NCBI GenBank assembly: GCA_015064415.1
Contig: SVSG01000008.1
Location: 13,306 to 77,305, forward strand
DNA length: 64,000 nt
Reading direction: 5' to 3'
Origin: Oscillospiraceae bacterium
GTDB lineage: Bacteria; Bacillota; Clostridia; Oscillospirales; CAG-272
This document shows, piece by piece, positions 11,353 through 38,800 of the stretch. The notes under the pieces were generated by a model that saw only the letters and a list, made by a program, of their open reading frames with translations, was not told the DNA's origin and did no database searches. Both the position numbers and the translations under genes were made by a program. Within the stretch, counting starts at the first letter, position 1; each line of letters begins with the position of its first letter.

Positions 11353-11383
11353 ACTTATGTTGCCTAAATAGATGCAGGCAGCG

Positions 11384-11583: not shown

Positions 11584-11589
11584 ATTAAT

Positions 11590-11661
11590 GCACAACAAGT
11601 GGTGTGTTTTAGCATATCACGACACCAAGCGGCTATTGGCGTAGCCGCTTGGTGTTTTTTT
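11590..11661 (+). ncRNA. Candidate ~70-nt small RNA (promoter-to-terminator unit)
   Basis: Predicted start about 7 nt after the -10. 13-bp hairpin acaccaagcggct/agccgcttggtgt (11622-11655) plus a T7 run. Its first 28 nt recur at 13187-13214. Confidence 0.4.
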
Positions 11662-11678
11662 ATGCGGTGTAGCATGTG

Positions 11679-12357: not shown

Positions 12358-12358
12358 A

Positions 12359-12982: not shown

Positions 12983-13186
12983 ATGTTTTAGTGCCTCCAA
13001 CACTTTTGAAGTTGTATGGAGACAAAGCGCTGTCGAAAGGTTCTTTGTATGAGCTTTATCTCCAGAACGGGAAACCACTTTTCAATCTTAAACTTGTAAA
13101 TATTATAAGTATGAGAGTGGTTGACCGGCAATGCGGTCTACTATTAAAGCGCACTTCAGAAAGGGTAGGCCAAAACAGCACTTTTT

Positions 13187-13214
13187 TGCACAACAAGTGG
13201 CGTGTTTTAGCATA
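13187..13214 (+). repeat. Second copy of a 28-nt direct repeat (tgcacaacaagtggYgtgttttagcata)
   Basis: 27/28 identical to 11589-11616, in the same orientation. Confidence 0.85.
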
Positions 13215-13286
13215 CCCCTACTGAATAAAGGTGGGTGAACTATTCGATTTTGAGCATCAAAGTATTGGCGTACAATGATGCTTACA

Positions 13287-13829
13287 TTAAACATCCATAG
13301 CGACCGCCTCCTTTAAGTAAATATTGCGTTGATAGCTTGCCGCTTCGAGAGATACTCCGCATTTTTCTACGATCTCCTCAACGGTCATGCCCTCTACGCG
13401 ATCCTTTGGAATCATGAACTCCCCTGCAAAGCATTTTGCCTGCCATTCAGGATCCTTAAAGGAAGGGATTTTCGCATTATCGTATGTTCTTGTCAGGGTA
13501 AATCCGCAGAAGCAAAGCATAAAGAAATGGCCGATCTCATGTGCGATGGTCATGCGATCGCGACCTTCGCCATTGCAAGCACGCTCATAAATCGTTTGCT
13601 TGATGCGAATGTGTCCAGTCGTAATATCGGTTTGCGCATGCTCGTTCCATGGCAGCTCATCATCCTCTACAATCTCATAATCGAAATTGGGGAAGTGAAC
13701 GGTCATGAAATCGAGAAGCGTTACAATAGGGAAATGGAGCTGATCCATGTCACCAAGACTTCGTCGAAAGCTGGTCGCAAGAGCTCGGATGCTTTTGCGA
13801 CCATGGGGTTCTACCATGTACTGACTCAC
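13287..13829 (-). CDS. ImmA/IrrE family metallo-endopeptidase
   Basis: 180 aa. TIAHEIGHFFM (HEXXH) and a downstream EFMIP motif. Immediately downstream of an XRE gene. Confidence 0.75.
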   Translation of the reverse strand: MSQYMVEPHGRKSIRALATSFRRSLGDMDQLHFPIVTLLDFMTVHFPNFDYEIVEDDELPWNEHAQTDITTGHIRIKQTIYERACNGEGRDRMTIAHEIGHFFMLCFCGFTLTRTYDNAKIPSFKDPEWQAKCFAGEFMIPKDRVEGMTVEEIVEKCGVSLEAASYQRNIYLKEAVAMDV

Positions 13830-13835
13830 CGAAAA

Positions 13836-14198
13836 TTAGTCCTCCTTGTTTTTGGAAAGAATGCCGAACAGCTCATCGATCTGTTCAGGGGTAAGGGAAT
13901 CAAATTGACGTGCGAATGACACAGCCAATCTGCGATTAGCAAAGGGCGATGCGGCAATGTCGATTTCAATGACATTGCTGGTTTCCATCACGATTTGCCG
14001 GATGTGGTTGAGTTCAGCTTCAGAAACGTTGTAAAGAGTTGCCAGCTTGTCATACCAAGTCTCTGGGAACTTCTTTTTTCCGTTTTCAACTGCTGAAAGA
14101 AAAGCGGAAGTGACGTTCAGACGGTGAGCCATGTCCTTTAAAATCTCGTTGTTGTGTAATCGTATGTTGGCTAAAATCTGACCCAATTCTGTTTTCAT
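13836..14198 (-). CDS. XRE-family helix-turn-helix transcriptional regulator
   Basis: 120 aa. N-terminal HTH LGQILANIRLHNNEILKDMAHRLNVTSAFLSAVENGKK. Confidence 0.75.
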   Translation of the reverse strand: MKTELGQILANIRLHNNEILKDMAHRLNVTSAFLSAVENGKKKFPETWYDKLATLYNVSEAELNHIRQIVMETSNVIEIDIAASPFANRRLAVSFARQFDSLTPEQIDELFGILSKNKED

Positions 14199-14216
14199 AT
14201 TCGTTCTTCTCCTTTG

Positions 14217-14310: not shown

Positions 14311-14620
14311 ATGCATCTATTAAGGCCACACTTGAAATTGCAAAAATGGTGCACTTTTGAGAAAAGTGACCTTCAAAAAATGCTGAAACCCTTGAAAACA
14401 CCGGGTTTTCGCGTTTTGGCAGATGCATCTAAATTGGCCACACCAGCCAAAACAAAAAAGACGGCAGCTGCCGTCTTTTTTGTTTTTATCCAAGTCGCAG
14501 GCGTGATGGGCGCAGAGCTCTGCAAAGCGGGCAAGATCCGTCTTCTTGAATCCCTACGCAAGCATTTTGAGGGCGGACTTTTCACGATCTTCGTGAAAGT
14601 CCCGCCCTTTTTCGTTTTTC
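14311..14620 (+). repeat. Intergenic repeat family, copy A (full length, two plus-oriented terminator hairpins)
   Basis: About 145 nt aligns with 24845-24985. Hairpins: aaaaaagacggcagctgccgtctttttt (14454-14481) and gggcggacttttcacga/tcgtgaaagtcccgccc (14571-14607) with a T-run. The tail resembles copy C. Confidence 0.75.
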
Positions 14621-17383: not shown

Positions 17384-17401
17384 GTTTTTGTGACGAAAAA
17401 C

Positions 17402-17446
17402 GCCAAAGCCCTTGAAAACACCGGGTTTTTGGGTTTTGGCAAATGC
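17402..17446 (+). repeat. Intergenic repeat family, partial copy
   Basis: gccaaagcccttgaaaacaccgggtttttgggttttggcaaatgca is nearly identical to 24912-24957 and 14382-14427. Confidence 0.7.
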
Positions 17447-17642
17447 AAGCAGCGCTTTGTGAAATTTTGCTCCTTTTTTAAGGGAAATATTGAAAAAATA
17501 TAAAATATATGGTATATTGAAGGTGCCGAATCAAATCCGTATTGCGGCGTATAGCGTGTCAGCTTTGATCACAAGGGCGCCTTAAAAACTTTGGAAGGTC
17601 GGCGCAATTTCTTGATAATAATATGAGGAGGAAAGCGCAGCA

Positions 17643-18436: not shown

Positions 18437-18575
18437 ATACATCTAAAATGGATACATGAGCCAAACAAAAGGGAGCACCTTGGTGCTCCCTTTTGTTTTA
18501 TCCAAGCCGAGGGCTTTTCAATGTTTTTTGAGGCGGGGACTTCACAAAATTTTGTGAAGTCCCCGCCCTTTTTGT
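18437..18575 (+). repeat. Intergenic repeat family, copy C (two terminator hairpins); contains the left copy of the 39-nt direct repeat
   Basis: ccaaacaaaagggagcaccttggtgctcccttttgttt (18461-18498). Second hairpin ggcggggacttcacaaa/tttgtgaagtccccgcc (18532-18567). The linker ttatccaagccg is shared with copy A. Confidence 0.75.
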
Positions 18576-19138: not shown

Positions 19139-20131
19139 TTACTCCTTGTTATATATACTGCGGTATTTTTTTGCCGCATAATGGTAGTAGTTGCGCATTG
19201 AGATGCCAAGGCGCTTGGGGGAAAGGATCAGCGCACTGTCGCCAAAGCGCTCAAAGTAATAAAGCGCCTGATTGGCAGAGCATTCGAAGGTGTAGATATC
19301 TCCCTCGATCTTGACGGGAGTGGGGCGATAAAGATAGATCTTTTCAAAAAGCGCTTTGCCTTTTTCGCTCAGCTGCACGCGAATGGGGGTGTTGTCTGTG
19401 GCATACATCGGGTATTGCGCACCGCACGCGATCTGCCTTTCAAACAAAGCTGCGCAATTCTCAGGAATGCTTGCCTTATCGGGGAGGAGGGAGACGGTGC
19501 GGATTTTAGCCAAACGCACCGTTTTGTTTTTTTCTCCGTCATACGAGAGCACGTAATTGAAAAGCTCGTCCTTAGCGGAGGCCACGGCGTAGATGGAGGC
19601 GCCGTTGACGACCGTGCCATTTGGCAAGGAGAGACAGACCTGAACCCCCTTTTTAACAGCGTGTGTCAGCAGCTCGTAATTTTGGCGGTACAGCAGTTTT
19701 TCGCGTTCGTTTTTGCTTTTTTGCGCATAGGAAATAAAGAGCCGACGGTAGTAAGAGGAAAGTGATTCGTCGTGCAAAAGCACGTGCTCGATCATGATGG
19801 TGGCACGCTCGGATTCCTTTGTGGGCTTAAAGGAAAGCGAAACACTCTTGCCATCACTCTGTTGCTTTTCGCGTTTGGCAAGCACTTTTAAAACGGCATC
19901 AAGCGCGCTCCGACGATACACCTCCGGCACGTTTGCAAGCGCCTTTTTGATATCATCGTGCAACGCCTCCTCGCCGGCGGAAAATGCTTCGTGATAATTG
20001 ATGATCAACGTGTTCAAAAAGTCGTTGAGGTTGGGGGAGCGATCCTTTTTTAAAAAGAGAAAGTCCGCACAATCTTTGCGCAAAAGCTCCAGTGTGCTTT
20101 GGGGCAGAGTTATTTTGATTTTTTCCGTCAT
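19139..20131 (-). CDS. WYL-domain transcriptional regulator-like protein (N-terminal RHH-like segment, C-terminal WCX-like)
   Basis: FNYVLSYDGEKNKTVRLAKIRTVSLL resembles the WYL core. FERFGDSALILSPKRLGISMRNYY resembles the C-terminal extension. GAGGTG lies 6 nt upstream of the ATG at 20131. Followed 3 nt later by the GNAT gene. Confidence 0.55.
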   Translation of the reverse strand: MTEKIKITLPQSTLELLRKDCADFLFLKKDRSPNLNDFLNTLIINYHEAFSAGEEALHDDIKKALANVPEVYRRSALDAVLKVLAKREKQQSDGKSVSLSFKPTKESERATIMIEHVLLHDESLSSYYRRLFISYAQKSKNEREKLLYRQNYELLTHAVKKGVQVCLSLPNGTVVNGASIYAVASAKDELFNYVLSYDGEKNKTVRLAKIRTVSLLPDKASIPENCAALFERQIACGAQYPMYATDNTPIRVQLSEKGKALFEKIYLYRPTPVKIEGDIYTFECSANQALYYFERFGDSALILSPKRLGISMRNYYHYAAKKYRSIYNKE

Positions 20132-20249
20132 ATTTATCACCTCATTTATAATAGTACCCGAAAAGGGGTCATTTGTCAATATAAAAATCCAATAAAATCC
20201 AATAAATTATAGCATTTTTAGGGGTCAAAAAAATATTGTAAACTGCCAA

Positions 20250-21181: not shown

Positions 21182-22546
21182 ATGAGAAATTTTGACAGAA
21201 TTGCCGGTTATGAGGCGGAGAAAAAGGAATTAGAGGTGCTTGTTGATATTTTCAACAACCGTGCGAAATATCGAGAAAAGGGTGCAAGCTTACCTAAGGG
21301 CATCATCTTTTGCGGAGAGAAGGGTGTGGGGAAGCAATTGTTTGCGACGGTTCTTGCCGAAAGATGTGCATTGAAAATCAGCGAGATCGATGTTGAAAAG
21401 GAGATGATGGACTATCGCGTCGCTCGTGAGATCCGCAAGGCGTTTACCAAGGCAGCACGCAATCATTATCCCACGATGATCCTGCTCAAGGGGCTGGACA
21501 AGCTGTTCGGCGAGGACGTGCCGGAATGCGGCAAGGAACAGCTGGAAACGGTGCGCTCGCAGCTTACCAATTTGCTGGACGGAATGGATACCATAGACAA
21601 TATCGTATTTGTGGCGACCTGCGAGCATGAAAGCACATTGCCCGATTGCTTGAGGCGCGCGGGGCGCTTTGATCGAAAGATCACGCTGGAGCTACCTGAC
21701 TATCCCTCTCGTGTGGAGATCTTACGGATGTATATGGATAGAACGTCCTGTCGCTTTGCACTGGATGCCGGGGCATTGGCAAAGCTTGGAGCGGGATTTT
21801 CCGGTGGTATGTTGGAGGCACTGGTCAGGGAATGTGCCCTACGTTCCGATCCAAGCAATTTTGTAAGTGAGGAGTGCTTAAAGGGGGCGGTGGTAGCGTT
21901 GGAGGAGGGCGAGGAGCTTGACGGCATGAATAACGTATACCAAACCGTGCAGGCGGTACGCAACATCGGCGCCTTTCTCGCCTCGCTTTCCTATCACAAA
22001 GGGGACTATCATTTGTCCTTGAACGAATGCACCGTATGCAACGGTTTCCTGGATGCAGTCATACACAAACTCAAACACAGTTACGATGACGACGATTATT
22101 ATTGCGACGATGACGATGACGAATACCCTTCTAAGGAACGCAAAGCAACGGCGTTTTCCAAAAACGATCTGCAGGCGGCGGTCACGTCGCTATTGGCCGG
22201 CTATGCCGCAGAGGAGTTGATCCTGCATAAGGTGCATCACACCATTGCAGAGAATATGCGTGTTCTCCGTTTCATTTTCCTGAAAATGGTGGAGTGCGGC
22301 ATGCTTGGACTGGGGCATTTGTATGTGGAGGTCCCCTACGATCGCTCGTCATGCTCTCAAGCGTGCTTGGAACGCTTGGAAAAGGAGTTTAATGACTTGA
22401 TTGCGGAATGTTATAAAAAGGCAACGGAGATCGTTCGCAAAAACGAGGAGCTTATCAAAAAACTCACGCCTGTGCTGTTGAAGCACCTTTTCCTGGAAAA
22501 GAGCGAGTGTGACCGCGTACTCTTCGAGCTTGGTGGCATCGCTTAA
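21182..22546 (+). CDS. FtsH-like AAA+ protein without TM segments, with degenerate Walker A/B and no HEXXH (probable pseudo-enzyme)
   Basis: AGGAGG RBS. Colinear with the FtsH AAA module (LPKGIIFCGEKGVGKQ, MILLKGLDKL, LRRAGRFDRKITLELPD, GFSGGMLEALVRECAL) and the M41-like tail (AGYAAEELIL). The HEAGH position reads RNIGA. Acidic insert SYDDDDYYCDDDDDEY. Confidence 0.65.
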   Translation: MRNFDRIAGYEAEKKELEVLVDIFNNRAKYREKGASLPKGIIFCGEKGVGKQLFATVLAERCALKISEIDVEKEMMDYRVAREIRKAFTKAARNHYPTMILLKGLDKLFGEDVPECGKEQLETVRSQLTNLLDGMDTIDNIVFVATCEHESTLPDCLRRAGRFDRKITLELPDYPSRVEILRMYMDRTSCRFALDAGALAKLGAGFSGGMLEALVRECALRSDPSNFVSEECLKGAVVALEEGEELDGMNNVYQTVQAVRNIGAFLASLSYHKGDYHLSLNECTVCNGFLDAVIHKLKHSYDDDDYYCDDDDDEYPSKERKATAFSKNDLQAAVTSLLAGYAAEELILHKVHHTIAENMRVLRFIFLKMVECGMLGLGHLYVEVPYDRSSCSQACLERLEKEFNDLIAECYKKATEIVRKNEELIKKLTPVLLKHLFLEKSECDRVLFELGGIA

Positions 22547-22611: not shown

Positions 22612-24150
22612 ATGAACTCAAGAAACGAGAGGGAGGTGCACGATTTGCAGAAGGATTTTTATTTGGATCTCTCGGATGAAGTGATCGCGATATGCGAGGA
22701 GCTGCTGCGCCGCGCTAAGGAGTGGCACTTGCCGATACGGCGCAAAGAGAATTTTGTCGGCTTTGGCAAAATACACGGCTTTTATATGTTCTGGATCTCT
22801 CGCAAGGATGAGGGGGACTATTTTAAGGCGCGCTCGGAGTATGCATGTGAGCGGTTGCAGGAAATTGTACACTATCCGCTAATTGCAGAAAACAAGGATG
22901 CTATCCTTGATGCGGCACAGGCGATCTATCGGGAGTATTTGGCACACGGGAGTGAGTTTCCCCGGAAGTCGCGCATCAAAACCCCTGACCCGTTGAAGGG
23001 GGAAGGAGCCCAAAATTCTTGGCATGGGGTGGCGCGGCATGCCGTATCGGAATGGAGAGGGGCGACAGAAGAGCGCGGGCAAGCCGCTTCGGGCACTGAG
23101 CTTTTGCAGACAGCTCAGGTGTTCTTGCGCAATGCGGATGCTCTGCTTCTGCTTTTGAGCAATGAAATACGATCTGCGCGTACCAAAGACGTTTGGAAAA
23201 GGTACGTGCTGACCGATGCCGAGACGCTTGAGCAGATCAGCAAAGATTATAGCTTGACGCGTGAGCGTATCAGGCAGCTTGTAAAAAGAGGCAACAGAGA
23301 GATCGCCGATCTTTTTGTGCGGTATTGTACGTACGAAAAGCGCGAGATCTTTGATACATACATTTTGCCAATGGCGCAAGCGTTGGAGAATGCTTCCTGC
23401 GATTTACCTGTGTTTTTGCAAAGCGCCTTTGCCGATTGGGGAGAGCGCAAGAAAAAAGTGGTCCTGCAGCTTTTATTTGGTGAGGAAAACGGCGCGGCGC
23501 TTGTGGAAGCGTGCGAGAAATATCAAAAAAAGGTAACGGAGCCCGCCAAAAAGCAAAACGGGATCGCGGAAAAGCTTGCCCGCTTACAGACGATGATCCG
23601 ATATCCCACTGCGGTGTATGCGGATACCGGTGAGAAAATAGGCACGTTTGTCATGGAAAAAGAGTATACACATATATCGAAATTCCGCAAGCTGCTGGAG
23701 AAAATGCAAGGGTATTTGCACTTTGTGCAAAACCCCAATATTGTGTATTATTCCACTGCAAAAACCGATCACCGTCCCAGTTTTTTACTGGAGTTTGAAA
23801 ACGGCAGACGTGTGCTTGTACTGGTGCTGCCGACGCTCAACATGGCTTTTTCTTATAACCTAAAGCGTTTTTGGGCGTTGCGGGATTTTTGCAAAAGGAG
23901 GGGGTACGGGTATCTGATCGTTGACGATCGGGAGCAAGCTTTGTGGGATCTGGAGTGCTTACCTGTAGATCCCGCCTTAAAAAGTGCCTTGGATGCAATT
24001 TTATTATCAAAGGGAAGGATCCTTTGGGACGATATCTTTGAGATGAAGAAAACGCACGATCTGACAAATAGTCTGATTGTTGCCTACGTTTTACAAAGCA
24101 AGCTGCATTTTGTAATGGATCCTTATTTTTGCATTTGTTCTTTTACGTGA
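22612..24150 (+). CDS. Hypothetical protein with an internal sigma-70 region-4-like HTH
   Basis: 512 aa. DAETLEQISKDYSLTRERIRQLVKRGNREI matches the region 4.2 pattern (TLEEIG..TRERIRQIE). The C-terminal part (HRPSFLLEFENGRRVLVLVLP...YGYLIVDD) is vaguely nuclease-fold-like. Confidence 0.55.
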   Translation: MNSRNEREVHDLQKDFYLDLSDEVIAICEELLRRAKEWHLPIRRKENFVGFGKIHGFYMFWISRKDEGDYFKARSEYACERLQEIVHYPLIAENKDAILDAAQAIYREYLAHGSEFPRKSRIKTPDPLKGEGAQNSWHGVARHAVSEWRGATEERGQAASGTELLQTAQVFLRNADALLLLLSNEIRSARTKDVWKRYVLTDAETLEQISKDYSLTRERIRQLVKRGNREIADLFVRYCTYEKREIFDTYILPMAQALENASCDLPVFLQSAFADWGERKKKVVLQLLFGEENGAALVEACEKYQKKVTEPAKKQNGIAEKLARLQTMIRYPTAVYADTGEKIGTFVMEKEYTHISKFRKLLEKMQGYLHFVQNPNIVYYSTAKTDHRPSFLLEFENGRRVLVLVLPTLNMAFSYNLKRFWALRDFCKRRGYGYLIVDDREQALWDLECLPVDPALKSALDAILLSKGRILWDDIFEMKKTHDLTNSLIVAYVLQSKLHFVMDPYFCICSFT

Positions 24151-24843: not shown

Positions 24844-25030
24844 GTGCATCTATGAAGGTCACGCTTGAAATCGCAAAATGTGGATTTTCGATGAAATGCA
24901 GTGATAAAAAAGCTGAAATCCTTGAAAACACCGGGTTTTTGGGTTTTGGCAGATGTATCTAAATTGGCCACACCGCCAAAAGAAAAGGGAGTGCTTCGGC
25001 ACTCCCTTTTCTTTCGTTCAAGCCGTGGCT
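24844..25030 (+). repeat. Intergenic repeat family, copy B (separates the two island modules)
   Basis: Aligns with copy A over about 145 nt. Terminator hairpin aaaagggagtgc-ttcg-gcactccctttt (24983-25010). Confidence 0.75.
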
Positions 25031-25124
25031 CTGTATCGCATTGCACGGGGCGTGTGCTTCGGCCTTTCTTGCCTTGAAAAGAAAAAGCCCGCGCTCGAAA
25101 AAAGTCTGATTTTATCGCAAACTC

Positions 25125-25153
25125 TTGGCAAAAACGCATTAATTTGTTATAAT
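25125..25153 (+). promoter_or_regulatory. Sigma-A promoter for the polymerase-like gene
   Basis: TTGGCA (25125-25130), 17 nt, TATAAT (25148-25153). Confidence 0.6.
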
Positions 25154-25195
25154 AAGATAAAAAGGTTAAAAGGAACCAAGGACGGAGGTGCGCGG

Positions 25196-28171
25196 ATGCA
25201 AGCTGTGAGCTATACGCCGATCAGGATACTGTCTATAGACGGCAGCGATATTTACCGTGCTATGCATCGCGTGGATGGTAATCTGGGGTTGACGCTGAAG
25301 GATACGCGCGGCAAGCTGGACACAAGCCGCTTCAGAGGGTTTCTCGACGCCAGTCTGGATACCGATCAGATCAAGAAGATCTATGCAAAGCACAAGGAGC
25401 TGCCCGGCAGCTTCCGTGTGTGCAAGGATTACACCACCTCCGTTGTGAACGTGTCCTTTGATTTTACGGTCAAGGAATTTTACAACAAAGGCAAGCGTCT
25501 TTTCGTGAGGGACGGCTACGATGCCCGTTGGGATATGCTGCACGACCACGTTCTTTTTGTTGAGGAGGACGGTGTAAAAAAGCTGATCGCCGTCGAGGTC
25601 GCGGACGATGAGAAGGAGCTGGACGAGCGTTACGTTCCCGTTTGCGAGCCCGTAGCGGAAGAGTTGCTTGCGGGATATTTTGCATACGATCCCGAAAGAC
25701 GGGCATATTACGTCAGGCGCCTTGGTTTTTTCGGCAGGACGGGAAGGGAAACCCTTATTCCGACGCTGGTCACAAAAAAGGAGATCCGTGCATGGCTTTA
25801 CGAAAACGGGTTTGATATAGACGGCGTGCATTACGTCAGATACAAGCGCAGTGCGGGCAGCAGCCGCGAGGGGCATTGCCTTTTTATTGCCGAGCCGTTA
25901 TATGAAGATATGATGGCGTGGAGCAGCTGCGGACTTGATCCGCAAGCGCTCACCGATCAGGCATCCTGGCAGGCGTACATATCCCTGACGCTCAGCAGTA
26001 TCGAAAAAAAGATCCATATCCCAAGGCAATCCATCATGATCATAAAGGATCAGGTCAGCACCTTTCGTGACACAGTGATCCGCGTGGGCGAATGTGGTGT
26101 GGGGCTTTCGGCATCCAGGGAAGAGGTCGAGATCAAAAACGTTGTCTGGGACGGCGAAGCGTTGCTTGACCGCAGTGTGTTTGAGGAAAACGGGTATGCG
26201 GATAAGGGGATGATGCTTCTTCGCAATCGTTTTTTCAAGACCTGCGCGTTCAATACCAATCTGCAGGAATGGTTTGCCGATCACGGCATCACGAAGCCGA
26301 GTCAGCTCGGCGGCTATTGCTCAAAAAGGACGCGCAGTATCGGGGATATTAAGCTTGTGATCACCGAAAGCAGCTTGAAGTATCTGAAATTCAAGCCCGC
26401 GGATGTGACGCTTTCGGACTGGTTTGAAAAATGGCTCGATCACATTTTCGTGGACAAGGAAAGTGCGCTTTTCGGCGTGGTGAAGACCGATAAAGCGATA
26501 GGCCCGATGCAAAACAGAATGGTCAAAACGAATTACCAGCTTCTCAACACCCTTGCGCTTTCCGAGCGTGATGCACATGCACTGCTTGCGCAATCCTTTG
26601 ATTTTTTGCACGCGATGCAAAAGGATCCCACGTACGTGCGCTATCATGCCAATCTGTTTGTAACGGACGGTTATGATGAGGAGGACACGTCCACCACAGA
26701 GAATTATCGCCAGAAGCTTATTTCGGATATCATGCGTCGCAGTGACGATTTTGAGGGCACTGTGTTCTATCGCAATTATCGTGCGGAGCTGTGCCGCAGC
26801 TTTAAGGAGCGATTGAAGCACGGCAGGGTGCTGATTGACGGTGGATACCACACGTTGCTTGGGAACGGTATGGAATTTTTGCATGCCGTGATCGACAAGA
26901 ATTATACGGTGGATGAGCCACTGGCGCTTGGCGACGGTGAGATATACGCGCCGAGATTTGCCGACGGCGAAGAGCTTTTGTGCGAGCGAAGCCCCCACAT
27001 CACGATGGGGAATTTATTGGTTGCCAAAAACAAATACGTGCCGGAGATCGAAAAATATTTCAACCTCGGTGCCGCGCGCTCTATCGTTTGTGTGAACGCG
27101 ATCCAAAGCAATTTGCAGCAGCGCCTCAACGGCTGCGATTATGATTCCGACTCGATGCTGATCACGAACAATGCGATCCTGCTTCGTACCGCAAAGGAAA
27201 ATTACGATAACTTCCCGGTGCCGTATTGCGACGTGCTCCCCGGTGGCAAGGTCACCTATACGACGGCGCCGAAGGATCTTTCGGAGCTTGACGTCAAGAT
27301 ATCCGAGAACAAGATCGGCGAGATCGTGAATCTTTCCCAGTTCCTCAACAGCTTGTACTGGGACAAGCTCTCGCGCGGTGAGCGGGAGGGGCTTACGGAG
27401 CTTTACGCCGATATTTGCAAGCTTGCGGTGCTTTCCGGCATGGAGATCGATAAAGCGAAACGTCTGTATCGGGTCTCAGCACTTGCCGTGCTGGCTGATC
27501 TTCGCATTCACAAGGATGCCTATAAAGAAGAACACAACGGCAAAATTCCTGCCTTTTTTGCATATATTACCGATAGCGAGCTTACGGATCAGACAAGCCC
27601 GCAGGCAAAGCTGGATACGGCAATGTCTTTCGTGTATGATACGGTCGACGAGGACAAGGGGCGCGCCCCCAGAAGCAAAAACGTGTATTACACAGAGCTG
27701 TTCGATCTTGATTTTGAAAGGGGAGATCCCACGGGGGCGTTTGCCAAGCGCCGCGATGCTATTTTGAGCTTTGTGGAAGAAGCGCAAAACAAGATCCGTC
27801 ATTTGAACTTTATCAGCAGTAAAAAGAACCGCTCGGAAAAACTGCTTGCCATAGAGGAGGCGGAGGCGCTGTTTGAGGAATGCAAAAAGAAGATCGAAAA
27901 AACCGCTGACGATCACGTGTACGCGCTGCTTTTGCGCGAGCTGGATAAGGGCGAGGAGAGCAAAAAAAGGGTCACGAGCTTCCACGCGCTGCTGTTTGCG
28001 GTCATGTGCTATGCAAACGAGGGGTATCTGCTCAAAAAACTGAAAAAGCCCACGTGCGAAATGCTGGATCTGTATCCCATAGCCGAGGGGGCTTGGTCTG
28101 ACGATCTGCCCGACAAGGTCATTGTATACGGGCATCCCTTCGTGAGGGCAAGAAGACAAAAAAGCAAATAA
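25196..28171 (+). CDS. Eukaryote-type RdRP / YonO-like two-barrel (DPBB) nucleotide polymerase homolog (991 aa)
   Basis: GGAGGTG lies 5 nt upstream of the ATG at 25196. Motifs: ERSPHITMGN (26984-27013); about 40 aa later LNGCDYDSDSMLI (DYDSD at 27137-27151); upstream RSAGSSREGHCLFI, VWDGEALLDRS and MLLRNRFFKTCAF, in the same order as the RDR/QDE-1 family motifs. Confidence 0.65.
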   Translation: MQAVSYTPIRILSIDGSDIYRAMHRVDGNLGLTLKDTRGKLDTSRFRGFLDASLDTDQIKKIYAKHKELPGSFRVCKDYTTSVVNVSFDFTVKEFYNKGKRLFVRDGYDARWDMLHDHVLFVEEDGVKKLIAVEVADDEKELDERYVPVCEPVAEELLAGYFAYDPERRAYYVRRLGFFGRTGRETLIPTLVTKKEIRAWLYENGFDIDGVHYVRYKRSAGSSREGHCLFIAEPLYEDMMAWSSCGLDPQALTDQASWQAYISLTLSSIEKKIHIPRQSIMIIKDQVSTFRDTVIRVGECGVGLSASREEVEIKNVVWDGEALLDRSVFEENGYADKGMMLLRNRFFKTCAFNTNLQEWFADHGITKPSQLGGYCSKRTRSIGDIKLVITESSLKYLKFKPADVTLSDWFEKWLDHIFVDKESALFGVVKTDKAIGPMQNRMVKTNYQLLNTLALSERDAHALLAQSFDFLHAMQKDPTYVRYHANLFVTDGYDEEDTSTTENYRQKLISDIMRRSDDFEGTVFYRNYRAELCRSFKERLKHGRVLIDGGYHTLLGNGMEFLHAVIDKNYTVDEPLALGDGEIYAPRFADGEELLCERSPHITMGNLLVAKNKYVPEIEKYFNLGAARSIVCVNAIQSNLQQRLNGCDYDSDSMLITNNAILLRTAKENYDNFPVPYCDVLPGGKVTYTTAPKDLSELDVKISENKIGEIVNLSQFLNSLYWDKLSRGEREGLTELYADICKLAVLSGMEIDKAKRLYRVSALAVLADLRIHKDAYKEEHNGKIPAFFAYITDSELTDQTSPQAKLDTAMSFVYDTVDEDKGRAPRSKNVYYTELFDLDFERGDPTGAFAKRRDAILSFVEEAQNKIRHLNFISSKKNRSEKLLAIEEAEALFEECKKKIEKTADDHVYALLLRELDKGEESKKRVTSFHALLFAVMCYANEGYLLKKLKKPTCEMLDLYPIAEGAWSDDLPDKVIVYGHPFVRARRQKSK

Positions 28172-28174
28172 AAA

Positions 28175-28215
28175 ACGGCATCTCTTTGCTGCGGCAGAGA
28201 GATGCCGTTTTTTTG
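28175..28215 (+). terminator. Intrinsic terminator after the polymerase-like gene
   Basis: acggcatctct...agagatgccgt plus a T7 run. Confidence 0.7.
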
Positions 28216-28428
28216 CAAAAAAATGACGCAAAAAACGGAATTTTGGAAGTTTTCGCCGATTTGAAAGCCGAGATCCCCTCGAAAACAGGGGATTTCGAGT
28301 TTTTTGGGAATTTGGTCAAATGGAACCCCTTTTGAAAAAGGGGATGGAGAATCAACCGCTATTATAAAAAACAGTAATGGAAGTTCTTTCTCCGATTTTT
28401 CCAAAATTTAAGAAATGAGGATTGACAC

Positions 28429-28731
28429 ATGAACAAAAAGGTGTATTGCGTCACGAACGAAAAGGGCGTGCAAAGCTTTTACCTGGAGGCGTGCGGCGAA
28501 ACGCATTATCTGTTTTCTCAGAATTTCAGACGCGGCGTGAAGGAGTACTTTGGGGCGGGCGTTCATCTGGATGCCGCTATCGATTATTCGCGCGCCGGTC
28601 ATGATACGGCGGTATTGCGCACGATGCGTAAATTGCCTGCTTTCATCAAATACATAGAAAAGCAATATGATATTGCGGTGCTTCGTCGAACGGCGAAACG
28701 AAACGCCACGTGGAAAAGAAGCGTCGCATGA
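28429..28731 (+). CDS. Small basic hypothetical protein (100 aa)
   Basis: GAGGA RBS. No recognisable family. Confidence 0.5.
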   Translation: MNKKVYCVTNEKGVQSFYLEACGETHYLFSQNFRRGVKEYFGAGVHLDAAIDYSRAGHDTAVLRTMRKLPAFIKYIEKQYDIAVLRRTAKRNATWKRSVA

Positions 28732-28799: not shown

Positions 28800-29465
28800 G
28801 TGTTTGATATAGGTCTGTATTACACAAAGGGAATGGAACACATGGAACGAAACGAGGTGGAGGAAGCTCTCACAACGCTTATTGCGGGACTCGAGCGCGG
28901 GGAGAGCAAATGCGCCTTCGGCATTTTGCACGCGGTCACACATTTTTGCTCTTACACCGTGAGCGAGGAGGAGGGGATCTCGATTTTCCGCGCGTCCTAT
29001 CCCCAAATAAAGTCTCTCGCGCAAGGCGGGGACACCGAGGCAATGGTCATGGTTGCCGAGGGGATACGGCTCGGCTTTGTGGAAGAGGAGGACGAGCCGT
29101 ATTTGTACTGGCTGACGAAGGCCGCCGCGCTTGGCGATCTGCACGCGGATGCCATCCTGCGGGAATTGGAGGAGTCGGACGATCCTTTTGGGTTGCCTGA
29201 CCTGTCCGCATATCTGATAGGAGAGGGGGGAGACGAAACGGATCTGCTTTTGCTCGCGCAAGACGCGGAGGATATCGACCTTCCGGAAGAGCACGTACTG
29301 CTGGAGGAGCCGGACTTTGTGCTTCGTGAGCAGTTCGGGATCGACGAATATCTGAGAAGAAAGAAGGTGCGTTATGAGCTGATGAAATGTCAAGACAGCG
29401 CCGTGCTTCCCGAGGAGCACGAAGGTAAGGACATGGAATTTACGCAAGAGGAGGATGAGGAATGA
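28800..29465 (+). CDS. Sel1-like repeat protein with a long acidic C-terminal tail
   Basis: AQGGDTEAMVMVAEGIRLGF...YWLTKAAALGDLHA fits the Sel1 pattern. The tail is rich in E/D. Start uncertain (GTG 28800 abuts the AGGAGG; ATG at 28833). The stop overlaps the next ATG (ATGA). Confidence 0.55.
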   Translation: MFDIGLYYTKGMEHMERNEVEEALTTLIAGLERGESKCAFGILHAVTHFCSYTVSEEEGISIFRASYPQIKSLAQGGDTEAMVMVAEGIRLGFVEEEDEPYLYWLTKAAALGDLHADAILRELEESDDPFGLPDLSAYLIGEGGDETDLLLLAQDAEDIDLPEEHVLLEEPDFVLREQFGIDEYLRRKKVRYELMKCQDSAVLPEEHEGKDMEFTQEEDEE

Positions 29466-30529
29466 TACCGAGAAATGCAAAGAAAGCAAAATACGAAAGA
29501 CTGTACGCCAACGGACTCATGTACCTTGCCAAGGGGGAGCCGCTGCTCGCGCAGAAGTATCTCAACGAGGCCGTGATCCAGTTGAAGGATTACATTATGT
29601 ATCTTTTCGACGATGAACGCGCGGAGGCCAAGGAGTGGTTCCTTGAGCTGTGCGGACACATCAAGGAGATCGGAAAGTATTACACCACGGTCAAGGCGCA
29701 AAACCAAACGGAAGAGGAGCCGCTTGAAGCGGCATCGGGCACGGAATCCTTTGCCTTTGCCAAGGGGGAGATTCCGTGTGTTTCCTTTGATGACGTTGTG
29801 GGCCTGGAGGACGTCAAGGAGCAGATCTACGATATGGTGATCTATCCGCGCCGGTACCGAGAGCTCTATGACCGTTTTCGCAAGAAGATGGGCGGCGGCA
29901 TTCTTTTGTACGGCCCTCCCGGCAACGGTAAGACCATGATCGCCAAGGCGATCGCCCACGAGACAGAGTCCACGTTTTACCCCATCAAGTTTTCGGATCT
30001 CGGCAGTAAGTGGTTCGGTGAGACGGAGGGGCGAATCAAGAGTCTGTTCGAGCAGGCGCGCCGTGAGGAGAGCGCGGTGATTTTCTTCGACGAGATCGAT
30101 GCGATCGCGACCGCGAGAAGTGACTCCTGTGCCATGGACCGCGTTGTGGCGGAGCTGCTGACGCAGATCGACGGCATCAACAGATCCGAGGGCAATATCA
30201 CCGTGCTTGCGGCCACGAACAGACCCGAGAAGCTTGACCCGGCGATCCTTCGCCCGGGGCGCTTTGACGAGAAGATCCATATCCCCTTGCCCGACGCCAA
30301 GGCGCGTGCCGCCATGTTTGAGAAGCGCCTTTGCGGGGTGCCTTCCACCGTTGCCGATTTCACGGAGTTTGCCGCGCTTTGCGACGGATTTTCCGGCGCG
30401 GAGATCGCACACGTGTGCGAGAAAGCGAAGCAGCGCGTGATCCGCAGTATCATCTCGGGCGCGCCCAACGAGACCTGTATCACGCCCTTGGATATCCGTG
30501 AAGCGATCGCACACGTGCGCGCTTCCTGA
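29462..30529 (+). CDS. AAA+ ATPase of the Vps4/katanin/spastin (meiotic) clade with a helical N-terminal domain
   Basis: Intact Walker A GPPGNGKT and Walker B IFFDEID. SKWFGETEGRIKSLF (SKW.GESEK-type motif). ATNRPEKLDPAILRPGRFD. Confidence 0.8.
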   Translation: MIPRNAKKAKYERLYANGLMYLAKGEPLLAQKYLNEAVIQLKDYIMYLFDDERAEAKEWFLELCGHIKEIGKYYTTVKAQNQTEEEPLEAASGTESFAFAKGEIPCVSFDDVVGLEDVKEQIYDMVIYPRRYRELYDRFRKKMGGGILLYGPPGNGKTMIAKAIAHETESTFYPIKFSDLGSKWFGETEGRIKSLFEQARREESAVIFFDEIDAIATARSDSCAMDRVVAELLTQIDGINRSEGNITVLAATNRPEKLDPAILRPGRFDEKIHIPLPDAKARAAMFEKRLCGVPSTVADFTEFAALCDGFSGAEIAHVCEKAKQRVIRSIISGAPNETCITPLDIREAIAHVRAS

Positions 30530-30560: not shown

Positions 30561-31277
30561 ATGGAAGTAATGAACTACAACAATCACAACGCAAACGAGA
30601 TCGCCGCAAACATTCTGCAGGGCGGGGAGGCATTCTGCAGCCCCGAAAGAAAGGGGATGAACCGCGTTGAGCGGATCAAGGACACGGTGGAGCGCTGGTA
30701 TGCGCTTCACCCCGACACCTACAAGGACCCGTATCAGCGCGCCATCATGAAGCATCTTTACACCGCGCTCGCCTACATGGGGGACGGTGAGGCATGCTCT
30801 TTGATGGAAATGCTTGCCTTCCGCGACTTAAGGGCGGCACAAAAGGCGGGCGACGAGCAGGCGATCGCCCGTGCCGAGGAGGAGATCGGATTCTGGCAGA
30901 CTGTGACCTTCCTTGTGATCAGCAAGGAGAAGGAGCCGCGCATCTCTTTGGCCTATCAGCTGCTTTTGGGGCTGGGATGCGAGAAGGACGCCGCGCGCGC
31001 GAGGGAGATCTACGAGCGAGAGAGCTTTGCCAAGTATGAAACGCTGACCGAGCGCGAGCGTGCCAAGCTGCGCGACGCGCGTGACGGCAAGCTGGTATGC
31101 CCGATGCCCGAGTTCAGAGGCCGCCTGATCGATGCCGTGATGGCAGGCGACCGTGAGCGCTACAAGCAGGTGTTTGACGAGGCGGTACGACAGGGTGCCG
31201 AGCGCGAGATCGACTCTGCCTGGTTTCTTCCGCACTATATCGGTGACGTCAAGTACGCGGAGGACACTCGCCCCTGA
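30561..31277 (+). CDS. Helical-repeat hypothetical protein (weak Sel1/TPR-like)
   Basis: AGGAG lies 8 nt upstream of the ATG at 30561. LAYQLLLGLGCEKDAARAREIYE resembles a Sel1 half-repeat. Confidence 0.5.
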   Translation: MEVMNYNNHNANEIAANILQGGEAFCSPERKGMNRVERIKDTVERWYALHPDTYKDPYQRAIMKHLYTALAYMGDGEACSLMEMLAFRDLRAAQKAGDEQAIARAEEEIGFWQTVTFLVISKEKEPRISLAYQLLLGLGCEKDAARAREIYERESFAKYETLTERERAKLRDARDGKLVCPMPEFRGRLIDAVMAGDRERYKQVFDEAVRQGAEREIDSAWFLPHYIGDVKYAEDTRP

Positions 31278-31938: not shown

Positions 31939-31977
31939 CCAAAACAAAAGGGAGCACCTTGGTGCTCCCTTTTGTTT
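31939..31977 (+). repeat. Right copy of the 39-nt direct repeat / terminator hairpin (repeat family copy D)
   Basis: ccaaaacaaaagggagcaccttggtgctcccttttgttt equals 18461-18498 with one extra A. Confidence 0.85.
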
Positions 31978-32039
31978 GGTTATTTTTTAGAAGAAAACGG
32001 CAGAAGCAGATGCAAAAAGCGAGCTGCTATCCGTTTTTA

Positions 32040-34983: not shown

Positions 34984-35012
34984 TTGACAACACAGGGTTT
35001 ATATGCTACAAT
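34984..35012 (+). promoter_or_regulatory. Sigma-A promoter
   Basis: TTGACA (34984-34989), 17 nt, TACAAT (35007-35012). Confidence 0.6.
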
Positions 35013-35049
35013 AAGGCCGTCAACCTTTTTTGGAAAGGAGCTTTACAGC

Positions 35050-35703
35050 ATGTATGCAACTTATCAGATCATAGGCACCGAGCTGATCCCCTGTGAGGTC
35101 TTTTTCGGCGATAGAAGCACGCCCGTGTGGCATCAGGCCAACTGGCACGGGGGGGAGTATGAGGAGTTCGTGCGCAAGAACGGGTGCGGGCATTGCTGTG
35201 CCGCAATGGTGCTCAATCTGCACGGCGTCAAGATCACCCCGCACGAGGAGTTCGCCCTTTGCCGCAAGCTTTGGGGCGTGCCCAACCGCGAGCAGGAGTT
35301 TCCGCAAGGAAATTATCAGACGGTAGCGGGCATTGCCAAGATCCTCAATTATCACGGCGTCAAGGCGGCGTGCTTTGGCGTGCCAACGCGTGAGTATGCG
35401 GCAAAGCATATCGAAGAGGCGTTGCGCGCGGGCAAGCAGGTCATTTTCTGGTCCAACCCGAACGAGGATTTTCCCGAAAATCCCTTTTCCTTTGGCGAGC
35501 ATTACGTGATGGCGGTCGGCTACACGAGAGAGGGCGAGATCCTGGTCGCCAACAGCTCACAGCGCAAGGCGCCGGACGGCGTGCAGCTCGTCGATATCAA
35601 CACCATCGTGCGGGCGCTTTTTCTCGGCTGTGATCCCACGGACAAGACCTGGGGCGAGAAGGGTGATCACATCCACTGCGCGGGCTACGTGGTGGTGGGA
35701 TAA
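35050..35703 (+). CDS. Papain-like cysteine peptidase (C39-like domain) protein
   Basis: AAAGGAG lies 9 nt upstream of the ATG at 35050. NGCGHCCAAMVL catalytic-Cys context and later GEHYVMAVGY (His). Confidence 0.5.
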   Translation: MYATYQIIGTELIPCEVFFGDRSTPVWHQANWHGGEYEEFVRKNGCGHCCAAMVLNLHGVKITPHEEFALCRKLWGVPNREQEFPQGNYQTVAGIAKILNYHGVKAACFGVPTREYAAKHIEEALRAGKQVIFWSNPNEDFPENPFSFGEHYVMAVGYTREGEILVANSSQRKAPDGVQLVDINTIVRALFLGCDPTDKTWGEKGDHIHCAGYVVVG

Positions 35704-35713
35704 TCCGTATAAA

Positions 35714-35747
35714 GCGAAAAAGGAGTGCTGTAGCACTCCTTTTTCGC
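35714..35747 (+). terminator. Intrinsic terminator
   Basis: gcgaaaaaggagtgc...gcactcctttttcgc. Confidence 0.6.
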
Positions 35748-35871
35748 TTAAATTGTTGAGAAAATGAGCGATCTGCAAAAAAGTGTTGCGCATTTTGTTG
35801 CGCATATGTTATAATAATTTGTAGCTACGAACTATTTTCAGCTGACTTAAAACAAAAAACGGGAGGGCAGG

Positions 35872-38800
35872 ATGAAAAAATTTATCAGACAAGCAGCGCT
35901 TTTGTGCCTGTTTTTTGTTTGCTTGCTTGCCCTCTCAACTTTTGGGGTGTTTGCCGCCGAGGGGAGCGGGGAAGCGGTGCGCGCGGGAAGCGTGCAACGC
36001 ATACAGGCAGGGAATCTTGCAAGCGCGGTGGCGGCTTATCGGCAAAGCCACCCCGACGCCGCACAGCACAAGATCACCGCCAATCACAAGGTGGTGTATG
36101 CCGACGATGCTTATTTTAAGGATCACGTGAACGCCACGACAAGCTACTTTTCCTACTATGCCCATACGGGTGGCAATCAGCTGCGGGCAACGCTTCGCTC
36201 GCTTGGCATCAACTGTCAGATGATCTCGGACAAGACCGCCGCAAGCGGCCCCGAAATCTTGGTTGGCGTTGTCGATCGCCCCGCGCAAAGCGAGTTTTTG
36301 CCGCTGGTTGACGTAAACGAGTTCGGCATTATGGTGACACAGAATCACATCATCCTGCTTGCGTGGCAGGATGCGGCGCTGAAGGTGTGCTTGGATACCT
36401 TCACCGCCTATCTCGGCGCAGGCACGCTCAGCTTGCCCGTCGGCTTTTGTGCCGTAGGTGTAGCAAATGCGCGCTGGGCGGTGGATTTTGAACGCCCCAC
36501 GGGCGCGGGTATCTCGCTCACGGCGGGGCAGTTCGTCAACGATGACTCTTTGCAATTTCTCTACACGGGCGCGGGCGTGACGCGCGCGGCGTTCCTTTCC
36601 TATTGTACCCGACTGACGGACGGCGGCTTCACGCTCGTGTGGCAAAATACCATCGGTAATAACGAGTTCAGAATGTACCAAAACACTGCCAAGGGGATCG
36701 CGCTGTATGCGGCGTATAACGATTTCGCCTACGGGGCGGAATTTGACGCGTTGTATCAAAGCAATTATGGCACGGCGGACGATCATTTAGAGCGAAAATT
36801 TGAGAAATGTATTCGTCTTGTTTCCTCGCCGCTTTCCTCTGTGGCAGTGGGCGGTGCAAATATCCATACACAGCAGCCCTACCAAAAGGTGACGGACAGC
36901 TATATGACCACGTTGGGGATCGCCTCCGAGCAGGTTGGTGCTGGCTACGTGATCCTTTTGGAGGACGGGCGCTTCGTCATCATTGACGGCGGCTACGTTT
37001 CAAGCAAAAAGAACGGTGTTTATCCCGAATCCAAGGCGATCTGGGATGCGATGCTGGCACTTTATAAAAAGGCATACGGCAACAGTGCCGTGCCCACGGC
37101 GCAAAGACCGTTGCACGTGGCCGCGTGGTATCTGACACACGCCCATTCCGATCATTATTACGCTTTTTTGAATATGGCGGAGATGATTGGTGCCGACAGC
37201 GCGAAAAAGGCAGTCTTCAAAATGGACTACGTGATCGCCAACCTGCCGGGGGAGTATAGTTTGTTTGACAATACCTCTACCAAATGGGGCTACGGCAACA
37301 GCCAAGCGATCCACAACATGAAAAGCAAGGTGGGTAATTTTACCTTCCTCAAGGTGCACGCGGGGCAAAGGATTCACTTTGCCAACCTCACGATCGAGGT
37401 GCTGATGACCTATGAGGATCATCTGCCCTTCCGCATCATCAACACCAATGACACTTGCACCGTGACGCGCTTTCATTTTCAGTATAGCGGTGCTTCCCAA
37501 AACAGTACCGTGACGGCACTTTCCGGTGAGGCAAGGACAGTCACTTTTCTTGGTGACTCCTGGCGTCTCTCCGGCCGCTATCTGTGCGCAATGTACGGCG
37601 GTTACCTGAAATCCGACGTCTCGCAGATCGCCCATCACGGCAACATTGGCTGCGAAAAAGAGCTGTATGACGCCATTTCTCCCACCGCAGTGTTGTTTAA
37701 CAACGAGCTGAGCTCGTTCAGAGCGTACGTTTGGGGCTCTACCACGAGCACCAATCCCGAAAAAAAGCACGCGTATGCGGTGGATCGATACGTAGTAAGA
37801 GAGTTGACCTCCGTGGTGTACGTATGGGCTGCGGTGGCAGGGAGTTATATCACGCTGCATTTTACCGAGGCGGGGCCGCAGTATGAAGCGGCTTTCGACC
37901 TGCTTACGGGGAAAACGGTCACCTACACCGATATCAATAAGGCCTCCTCGAGTCAAAACGGATTTGCCAAGCGCGCACACACGCACACCTATAGTGCGGT
38001 TTGGAAGTACAATGCGCAGAAGCATTGGAAGGAGTGCGCTTGCGGTGCTCAGAGTGCAGTCGCCGCACACAGCTACGGCGCGTGGGAAAAGCACGATGCC
38101 GCACAGCACAAGCGGGCTTGCGCGTGCGAAAATGTGGAATATGCCGCGCACAACTGGAACAGCGGCACGATTACAGTACATCCCTCGCACACCACGTTCG
38201 GTGAAAAGACGTTTACTTGTAATGATTGCGGCGAAAGCTACACCGAGGAGATCCCCAAGCTGACCGAACACAGCTACGGCGCGTGGGAAAAGTATAACAA
38301 AACACAGCACAAGCGGGCTTGCGCGTGCGAGGATGTGGAGTATGCCGCGCACGATTGGAACAGCGGCGCAATTACAGTACATCCCTCGCACACCACGCTC
38401 GGCGAAAAGACCTTCACTTGTAATGATTGCGGCGAAAGCTACACCGAGGAGATCCCCAAGCTGACCGCACACGAGTACGGCGCATGGGAGAAACATAGCG
38501 CCATACAGCACAAACGTGTGTGTGTTTGCAAGGACGTAGAGTATGCCGCGCACGATTGGAACAGCGCGATCACCGTATATCCCTCACATACCACGCTTGG
38601 TGAAAAGGCCTTCACTTGTAATGACTGCGGCGAAAGCTACACCGAAGAGATTCCAAAGTTGACCGAGCACAGCTATGGCGCGTGGGAAAAGTATAACAAA
38701 GCACAGCACAAGCGGGCTTGCGCGTGCGAGGACGTGGAATATGCCGCGCACAACTGGGATAACGGCGTGATCACCGTGCATCCCTCGCACACCACGCTTG

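Follow-up and report, generated by a model that had tools for sequence, protein, structure and literature searches.

Background

The Bacillus subtilis phage SPbeta encodes YonO, a processive DNA-dependent RNA polymerase that is essential for the phage and transcribes a late operon starting just downstream of its own gene (PMC5467207). Neither its promoter nor a cofactor had been identified (PMC5467207). From YonO it is clear that processive RNA synthesis can be achieved by a single 100-kDa chain with just two catalytic barrels. YonO-like proteins encoded in the chromosomes of firmicutes were reported in 2010 (PMC2919709) and again in 2017 (PMC5467207), and both papers call their role an enigma. 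The 2010 list includes two Clostridia then named Bacteroides capillosus and B. pectinophilus (PMC2919709). Whether these chromosomal genes do anything has been an open question since 2003-2010. Here we describe such a gene, encoding a protein of 991 amino acids (aa), from a 64-kb stretch of the genome of an Oscillospiraceae bacterium (contig SVSG01000008.1, positions 13,306 to 77,305), which is referred to as the window.

Eight residues are common to all two-barrel polymerases, and in the Neurospora polymerase QDE-1 these are D709, R738, K743, R962, P964, D1007, D1009 and D1011 (Ruprich-Robert and Thuriaux, PMC2919709). Searches of the literature for conjugative or mobilisable elements with YonO-like enzymes turned up no more than a passing mention of 'transposon relatives'. 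The genomic contexts described below include such elements, as well as phages and islands. All coordinates refer to the 64-kb window; L-numbers denote homologous loci and W denotes the window locus.

Results

Family and fold of the window protein

Comparison with PHROGs assigned the window protein to phrog_8308 (E = 2.7e-88), with residues 185-919 matching profile positions 113-799 of 847. YonO, taken from the SPBc2 record, matches the same family over its full length (E = 0). An hhalign comparison of the family alignment with YonO gave 95.2% probability (E = 2.5e-8) over 513 columns, with window residues 196-791 placed on YonO 124-658. This alignment pairs SSAG with SSAG, R-x4-K with RLPWVK, RSPH with RSPH, and DYDSD with DNDGD. 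The Pfam RNA-dependent RNA polymerase (RdRP) family PF05183 is matched by seven of 35 homologues (best E = 2.1e-10). The window protein itself does not match PF05183 at E 0.1 or better and its direct Pfam scan is noise, so its link to that family is by transitivity only. Neither the single protein nor the family profile found a match when searched by sequence against the PDB.

An AlphaFold2 model built on the alignment has a mean predicted local distance difference test (pLDDT) of 86.7 and a predicted template modelling score (pTM) of 0.81. Foldseek comparison of this model with the PDB gave 21 significant chains, all of them from QDE-1 or plant RDR2, which are eukaryotic polymerases of RNA silencing (E 1.9e-16 to 3.6e-12, probability 1.0). 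The template modelling (TM) scores of these matches range from 0.33 to 0.46, with the best at 0.42-0.46 across 830-900 columns. Next in rank are Rpb1 barrel fragments and a designed double-psi beta-barrel protein, at E of about 0.1-0.2. Among predicted viral structures the best match is a phage protein named RdRP (E = 1.2e-58, TM 0.74), and the polymerases of crAss-like phages and giant viruses are far behind it.

The phrog_8308 and Foldseek matches are far beyond chance, and the window protein is almost certainly a polymerase of the YonO family. According to the model, its single chain would hold the two double-psi beta-barrels that make up an RNA polymerase active site. The original prediction, made from the sequence of the window, was of a two-barrel polymerase resembling YonO and the eukaryotic RdRPs but lying outside an SPbeta-like prophage, and it is borne out by the PHROG assignment, the hhalign result, the PF05183 matches of the relatives and the fold. 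The profile and fold comparisons that it proposed came out in its favour for the PHROG, hhalign and QDE-1/RDR2 matches, and against it for PF05183 and the window protein itself.

The model also confidently predicts a beta-rich N-terminal region (residues 1-190; 25196-25765). These approximately 190 residues are kept in relatives down to about 35% identity, some phage copies included. YonO lacks them, as do the most distant phage and plasmid relatives, in which the matches begin at residue 190-196.

Catalytic residues

The five peptide blocks on which the original prediction relied are all present in the order it gave, and its numbering of D648, D650 and D652 is correct. The blocks are YKRSAGSSREGHCLFI (residues 216-231), VWDGEALLDRS (317-327), MLLRNRFFKTCAF (340-352), ERSPHITMGN (597-606) and LNGCDYDSDSMLI (644-656). 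A spacing of about 40 residues had been given for the last two blocks; this is right for the gap between them, whereas R598 and D648 are themselves 50 residues apart. R598 and P600 form the R-x-P motif that two-barrel polymerases of the RdRP/YonO branch carry about 45-50 residues ahead of the DxDxD loop.

Twelve residues are invariant in the 35 homologues, which share 45-79% identity: D319, D325, R343, R345, K348, R598, P600, D648, Y649, D650, S651 and D652. These invariant residues fit the eight that are common to two-barrel polymerases, with R343/K348 corresponding to QDE-1 R738/K743 and R598/P600 to R962/P964 in the residue list of PMC2919709. The fourth acidic residue, equivalent to QDE-1 D709, has two candidates, since D319 and D325 are equally invariant and the hhalign alignment is gapped in this stretch. 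D325 suits the spacing to the R-x4-K pair in YonO better than D319, which had been the earlier choice. A 3D>3N mutant of YonO appears in the Methods of PMC5467207. Judged from these alignments, the catalytic site of the window protein is predicted to be intact and competent.

Distribution and genomic contexts

The family comprises more than 1472 clusters at E 1e-5 or better, almost all of them from metagenomes of gut Clostridia. Relatives were confirmed in 204 stretches of 185,579 species genomes (one genome per species). A scan of viral contigs found 77 loci, none of which exceeds 44% identity. The neighbours within 8 kb were clustered for 84 genome loci, and the recurrent clusters were named by Pfam and PHROGs. 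Marker genes were then mapped in 171 loci onto a neighbour-joining tree of 132 polymerases rooted with YonO. Three types of context emerge, which are phage, mobilisable element and island.

Phage-borne copies form the basal clades of the tree. Exonuclease, large terminase and/or portal genes accompany the polymerase in about 56 loci, mostly in the SPbeta order directly downstream of it. Chromosomal copies form an intermediate grade after the phage clades; a serine recombinase gene follows some of them, and several adjoin a gene for a 100-aa protein. Pumilibacter muris CLA-AA-M08 (L082) has a copy of the serine-recombinase type. The window clade (L006, L003, L089, L005, W and L088) is 60-76% identical, and its sister is a large clade that shares 45-50% identity. 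There the polymerase gene is succeeded, in the same orientation, by genes for an HTH_36 protein, a ribbon-helix-helix (RHH) protein, a MobL relaxase and two tyrosine integrases. All four markers are present in 17 loci and at least one in about 43, many of the contigs being cut short. This layout is the backbone of an integrative mobilisable element (IME), in which the polymerase is the first backbone gene and variable cargo lies upstream. The polymerase genes of the IME clade also close with their own strong terminator.

In all three types of context the polymerase lies upstream of, and is co-oriented with, a block of element genes. The lineage has left the phages, and in the window this enzyme lies in an island devoid of mobility genes. 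It had been supposed that no mobile-element system uses a polymerase of this fold. This is untrue for the family, which supplies a core gene of MobL-type IMEs in the sister clade and includes distant relatives in prophages with SPbeta-like synteny. Nor were stand-alone bacterial YonO-like proteins unheard of, since the papers of 2010 and 2017 had already reported them. Almost none of the neighbours of the window gene are kept across the 84 homologous loci. For this reason a fixed multi-gene system centred on the polymerase was no longer considered.

The polymerase gene as a transcription unit

Mechanical calling of open reading frames (ORFs) gives a frame of 24953-28171 on the plus strand. The actual start is the ATG at 25196, because a terminator hairpin and the promoter fall between 24953 and this codon, because homologues of 987-993 aa align across 99-100% of the 991-aa product, and because gene callers in four other assemblies give exactly the same product. 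The signals of the gene are listed in Table 1. Its promoter reads TTGGCA (25125-25130), 17 nucleotides (nt) and TATAAT (25148-25153), with TG ahead of the -10 element, and a GGAGG ribosome-binding site (RBS) and an intrinsic terminator complete the unit. The promoter, the strong RBS and the terminator had all been read correctly in the original prediction. Since the upstream operon ends in a hairpin of its own, the polymerase gene is a separate transcription unit. An identical protein was recovered on 6 contigs from several samples, and the gene is therefore maintained. Split polymerase frames occur in L053 (218+748 aa), L069 (261+664) and L083 (519+317), and these are either decaying copies or assembly errors.

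The downstream operon and the 100-aa protein

Four genes at 28.4-31.3 kb follow the polymerase in the same orientation (Table 1), and they were assigned by comparison with L085 and L087. The first encodes a basic protein of 100 aa, the second a 221-aa protein that probably contains Sel1-like repeats, the third an IetA-like AAA+ ATPase of the classic clade, and the fourth a 238-aa protein without a family match in the Pfam and PHROG scans. The AAA ATPase is 72-75% identical in L005, L085, L087, L176 and L178. The IetS serine protease partner was not found, and the genes adjoining the IetA-like AAA gave neither a protease nor any other family match in Pfam, PADLOC and PHROG. L005, L085, L087 and L178 also have the operon behind or close to their polymerase gene, often extended by proteasome-like genes. 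It looks like an uncharacterised ATP-dependent protease or conflict module. Its relatives (L085 17669-22543, L087 14399-16112, L176 and L178) encode the 100-aa protein, a Sel1 or LRR repeat protein, the IetA-like AAA and proteins of 190-230 aa. Some of the last proteins in these relatives are proteasome-like (PF00227).

The 100-aa gene is the most persistent association of the polymerase outside phages and mobilisable elements. In at least 11 loci (W, L004, L005, L056, L070, L071, L076, L079, L085, L087 and L178) the two genes share a strand and are no more than 4 kb apart, and the association holds in some loci in which the polymerase is just 38-47% identical to that of the window. The 100-aa family counts 350 representative clusters, and neither Pfam nor PHROGs has a family for it. 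The predicted structure, of moderate quality (pLDDT 75.5), has three strands plus helices. The model has no significant structural match, and the best one, an AP2 DNA-binding domain at E 0.32, is a mere hint.

A conserved leader and repeated hairpins

The non-coding leader ahead of the 100-aa gene is kept at the DNA level between loci whose proteins share 50-75% identity. Its counterparts are L005 13478-13712, L085 16394-16628, L087 13129-13363, L176 65-299 and L181 1750-1984. In the window it comprises an A-rich block, a hairpin with a GAAAACA loop (28269-28297), CAAATGGAACCCC with a hairpin (28315-28343), a long hairpin GGAGAA...TTCTCC and TTTTTCC. The long hairpin is CAGAGAA...TTCTCTG elsewhere, and the TTTTTCC that follows gives it the look of an attenuator. 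No sigma-70-type promoter reaches the scan threshold in the 216 nt that separate the polymerase terminator from the 100-aa gene. The motif AWATGGAAYCCC is present in 15 of the 183 fetched loci, nearly always just 5' of the 100-aa gene. Neither the leader nor the repeats described next have an Rfam family at or near threshold.

The hairpin with the GAAAACA loop (yGAAAACA) and a T/G-rich tail has four copies on the plus strand of the window, at 14376-14456, 17396-17447, 24906-24986 and 28269-28297. Within these stretches the hairpins lie at 14385, 17405, 24915 and 28269, and none is expected by chance. Their stems stay paired through G-U changes, and each is followed by TTTTTGGGTTTTGGCA or a similar sequence. 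The copies at 14376 and 24906 extend to about 170 nt with a terminator at the end, like small RNA genes. One copy is just upstream of the polymerase, and another is within the leader. The hairpin was found in no other genome searched, and it was ruled out on this ground as a general signal of the polymerase family.

Table 1. Polymerase gene, its motifs and signals, and associated features, in window coordinates
Feature	Position	Strand	Evidence
YonO-family single-chain two-barrel RNA polymerase, 991 aa	25196..28171	+	phrog_8308, hhalign, AlphaFold2, Foldseek
Sigma-70-type promoter of polymerase gene	25125..25153	+	Read directly; 11/12 in consensus scan
Polymerase RBS GGAGG, 7 nt 5' of ATG	25184..25188	+	Read directly
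Codons of YKRSAGSSREGHCLFI (residues 216-231), conserved N-terminal block of catalytic region	25841..25888	+	Mostly invariant in 35 sequences; aligns with YonO SSAGQIR
Codons of DGEALLD (D319-D325), two invariant Asp	26150..26170	+	Invariant columns in 35 sequences
Codons of RNRFFK (R343-K348), R-x4-K basic pair of first barrel	26222..26239	+	Invariant; aligns with YonO RLPWVK
Codons of R598-S-P600	26987..26995	+	Invariant; aligns with YonO RSP
Codons of D648-Y-D650-S-D652, predicted metal-binding DxDxD loop	27137..27151	+	Invariant; aligns with YonO DNDGD
Intrinsic terminator of polymerase gene	28170..28213	+	20-nt arms, 95% complementary, then T-run
Conserved non-coding leader 5' of 100-aa gene	28222..28428	+	DNA-level conservation in L005, L085, L087, L176, L181
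100-aa basic protein, recurrent neighbour of non-phage polymerase genes	28429..28731	+	Neighbour comparison
221-aa protein, probably Sel1-like repeats, second operon gene	28800..29465	+	About 50% identical to same-position L085/L087 genes; weak Sel1 match
AAA+ ATPase (classic clade, IetA-like), third operon gene	29462..30529	+	Pfam AAA E 6.6e-42; PADLOC IetA E 2.4e-43
238-aa protein, fourth operon gene	30561..31277	+	52% identical to same-position L085 gene
Palindromic hairpin closing downstream operon	31941..31979		Identical to 18461-18499
Hairpin terminator closing upstream operon	24979..25014	+	Hairpin search, direct reading
Soluble FtsH-like protein (AAA + peptidase M41)	21182..22546	+	Pfam; tblastn; Pfam domains in L004

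The island around the polymerase

The polymerase sits in a block of lower GC content (0.38-0.52) than the flanks (0.55-0.59). This block starts right after a tRNA-Leu gene (anticodon AAG) at 11268-11352, which is probably an old integration site and would make 11.3-32 kb a composite island. The stretch 11268-14200 has a GC content of 0.38-0.45 and carries genes of the mobile-element type (DUF4417, an ImmA/IrrE-type M78 peptidase and an XRE-type helix-turn-helix (HTH) protein), with no integrase.

Pfam and PHROGs scans of the ORFs at 11.7-44 kb found no integrase, relaxase, terminase, portal or capsid gene. Tblastn searches of the whole 64 kb with representatives of MobL, RHH, HTH36, tyrosine integrase and serine recombinase returned nothing, and the corresponding markers for the exonuclease, terminase and portal of an SPbeta-like late module were likewise without a match in the window. 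The statement in the original prediction that no capsid, terminase or integrase gene lies nearby agrees with both searches.

Identical 39-nt palindromes (AAACAAAAGGGAGCACC TT GGTGCTCCCTTTTGTTT) lie in inverted orientation at 18461-18499 and 31941-31979, on either side of a 13.4-kb block containing the polymerase, and the hairpin at 24979-25014 is a copy 78% similar to them. The palindromes may be shared terminators that work in both directions, or may mark where an inserted block ends.

Upstream of the polymerase is a gene for a soluble FtsH-like protein. FtsH-like genes recur beside the polymerase in L004, L005, L076 and L079, twice beside an ADP-ribosylglycohydrolase. The FtsH-like protein of the window contains a very acidic stretch, DDDDYYCDDDDDEY. 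The next gene (22612-24150, plus strand) encodes a 512-aa protein and has its own TTTACA-18-TATAAT promoter; its sole family match is a weak one to the HTH of sigma-70 region 4 (E = 6.8e-5, below the cut-off). This protein was considered as a specificity factor of the polymerase and rejected, as it adjoins no other polymerase gene among the 84 homologous loci. Two small ORFs are also found upstream of the polymerase on the same strand.

On the minus strand, 19139-20179 encodes a protein of 346 aa whose C-terminal region is WYL-like (PADLOC WYL, E = 9e-7) and which resembles winged-helix proteins of the FtsK_gamma type in L085. It is likely to be a regulator of the island. At 34984-39948 a gene for a C39-like peptidase is followed by one for a 1358-aa protein rich in zinc-ribbon or C2H2-like repeats (sub-threshold Pfam matches), and MatE and ABC exporter genes adjoin them.

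Discussion

A possible private polymerase of the island

The window protein may be a DNA-dependent RNA polymerase that is private to its island and transcribes island genes, a reading to which we give an even chance. The polymerase would use a DNA template and transcribe a private set of genes within its own island. The prime candidate for its target would be the co-oriented operon downstream, because this operon has a conserved leader and no recognisable sigma-70 promoter. The 100-aa protein could act as a DNA-binding cofactor. We favour this mechanism because the SPbeta late operon that YonO transcribes adjoins the yonO gene on its downstream side (PMC5467207), because the polymerase gene is provided with a sigma-A promoter and the scan finds none at its threshold in the 216 nt ahead of the 100-aa gene, and because the phage, IME and window clades all place element genes downstream of the polymerase in the same orientation.

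Several observations weigh against a private island polymerase. A homologue of the 100-aa gene occurs with its leader in L175, where no polymerase is found within 2 kb on either side, and the AWATGGAAYCCC motif tracks the 100-aa gene, not the polymerase. The polymerase of L089 (72% identical) is alone amid housekeeping genes without the downstream operon, and L001-L003 carry yet other neighbours, so that no target operon is universal. Leader secondary structure is suggestive: RNAalifold with six sequences found compensatory changes in 2 of 21 predicted pairs and gave no covariation bonus. Nothing like the leader motif (ATGGAA-hairpin) is present in the SPbeta region where YonO starts transcription. 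The polymerase terminator could be leaky, which would explain the absence of a promoter before the 100-aa gene. The solved QDE-1 and RDR2 structures are RNA-dependent or dual-template enzymes, and a predicted fold of this kind therefore gives no choice of template.

Alternative roles

The template question leads to a different role, in which the protein, working like a primase or as a maker of second strands, would copy single-stranded DNA or RNA when a mobile element is replicated or transferred, for example by priming the complementary strand of an excised mobilisable element that replicates by rolling circle; the window copy would then be a remnant. The sister-clade gene does occupy the usual place of a replication gene, directly before the HTH_36/DnaD_N-like protein, the RHH protein and the MobL relaxase. 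QDE-1, one of the nearest solved relatives, was solved with a DNA template and an RNA primer and has both DNA- and RNA-dependent activity (PMC9508822). YonO, the sole characterised member of the family, nevertheless transcribes duplex DNA processively (PMC5467207), and the window island has no relaxase, integrase or replication gene, yet its polymerase is intact and has its own signals. We know of no two-barrel primase, and on balance consider such a role unlikely. The neighbours raise another prospect, that of a conflict system against phages or plasmids, in which the polymerase would work with the 100-aa protein and the AAA ATPases or proteases and make RNA from invading nucleic acid, or signalling or decoy RNA. 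The IetA-like AAA, the WYL-type regulator and the soluble FtsH-like AAA-M41 protein resemble the content of a defence island, close relatives have proteasome-like genes and restriction-modification systems, and the 100-aa and AAA genes remain near the polymerase down to 38-47% polymerase identity. The polymerase itself has no PADLOC match, however; it stands alone in L089 and has quite different neighbourhoods elsewhere, the IetA-like AAA lacks its IetS protease partner, and the AAA operon also occurs on contigs without a visible polymerase. No defence system known to us uses the two-barrel polymerase fold, and literature searches found none with it. We judge this role to be about as improbable as a primase-like one.

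Two further explanations do without a private gene set. A domesticated polymerase might transcribe host genes elsewhere in the chromosome under some stress, as in the speculation of Forrest et al. on chromosomal YonO-like proteins (PMC5467207), and the L089 and L087 copies are indeed embedded amid housekeeping or cell-division genes. The window gene, in contrast, is in a low-GC block that starts beside the tRNA-Leu gene, the neighbourhood differs in almost every genome, and 204 stretches among 185,579 species genomes fit horizontal spread better than a host function, which makes domestication quite improbable. That the gene is a decaying and functionless relic of a phage or mobile element would agree with the lack of mobility genes in the window and with the split copies of L053, L069 and L083. 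It is hard to reconcile with a full 991-aa frame in which all the catalytic residues are invariant, with a strong promoter, RBS and terminator, or with the recovery of an identical protein from several samples, and we regard a relic as very improbable indeed.

Significance

The private island polymerase can be extended to a more specific and doubtful proposal. A YonO-type lineage would have left the phages to serve non-viral mobile DNA of gut Clostridia as a private RNA polymerase, in MobL-type elements as well as in small cargo islands, and the island type would have a 100-aa DNA-binding partner recognising the CAAATGGAACCCC-hairpin element. If so, the element would be transcribed without the host sigma factor and would not respond to host regulation. 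For non-viral mobile elements, having a polymerase of their own would be a novel strategy, and the enzymes could serve as compact, orthogonal polymerases in Gram-positive anaerobes. Copies outside phages are intact and conserved, and in one large clade they are a backbone gene of mobilisable elements. In the window clade there are candidates for the target operon, for a cis element and for a small partner protein.

Comparison with described systems

The window protein and YonO belong to the same phrog_8308 family, both are single chains of 840-990 aa with SSAG, R-x4-K, RSP and DxDxD motifs, and both genes are upstream of, and co-oriented with, a block of element genes. They differ in sequence, with about 21% identity over the 513 aligned columns, and the window protein has approximately 190 extra N-terminal residues. 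The window copy is not in a prophage, and the exonuclease, terminase and portal genes are absent downstream. QDE-1 and RDR2 are the sole significant fold matches in the PDB (830-900 columns) and have the same invariant active-site residues, although identity is 12-14%, the TM score is just 0.42-0.46, and the window protein is bacterial. The MobL-type IMEs of Clostridia (e.g. L021, L032 and L068) carry a polymerase that is 45-50% identical, monocistronic and closed by its own terminator. Their copies are followed by HTH36, RHH, the MobL relaxase and two tyrosine integrases, whereas the window has none of these.

The window copy belongs to the chromosomal YonO-like class of the 2010 paper, being chromosomal, patchy in distribution, fast-evolving and found in Clostridia. 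That work gave no genomic context, and the contexts are here sorted into phage, mobilisable-element and island types. YonO-like chromosomal genes were already known; what is new are these context types, the sister clade of IMEs, and the operon and leader of the window clade.

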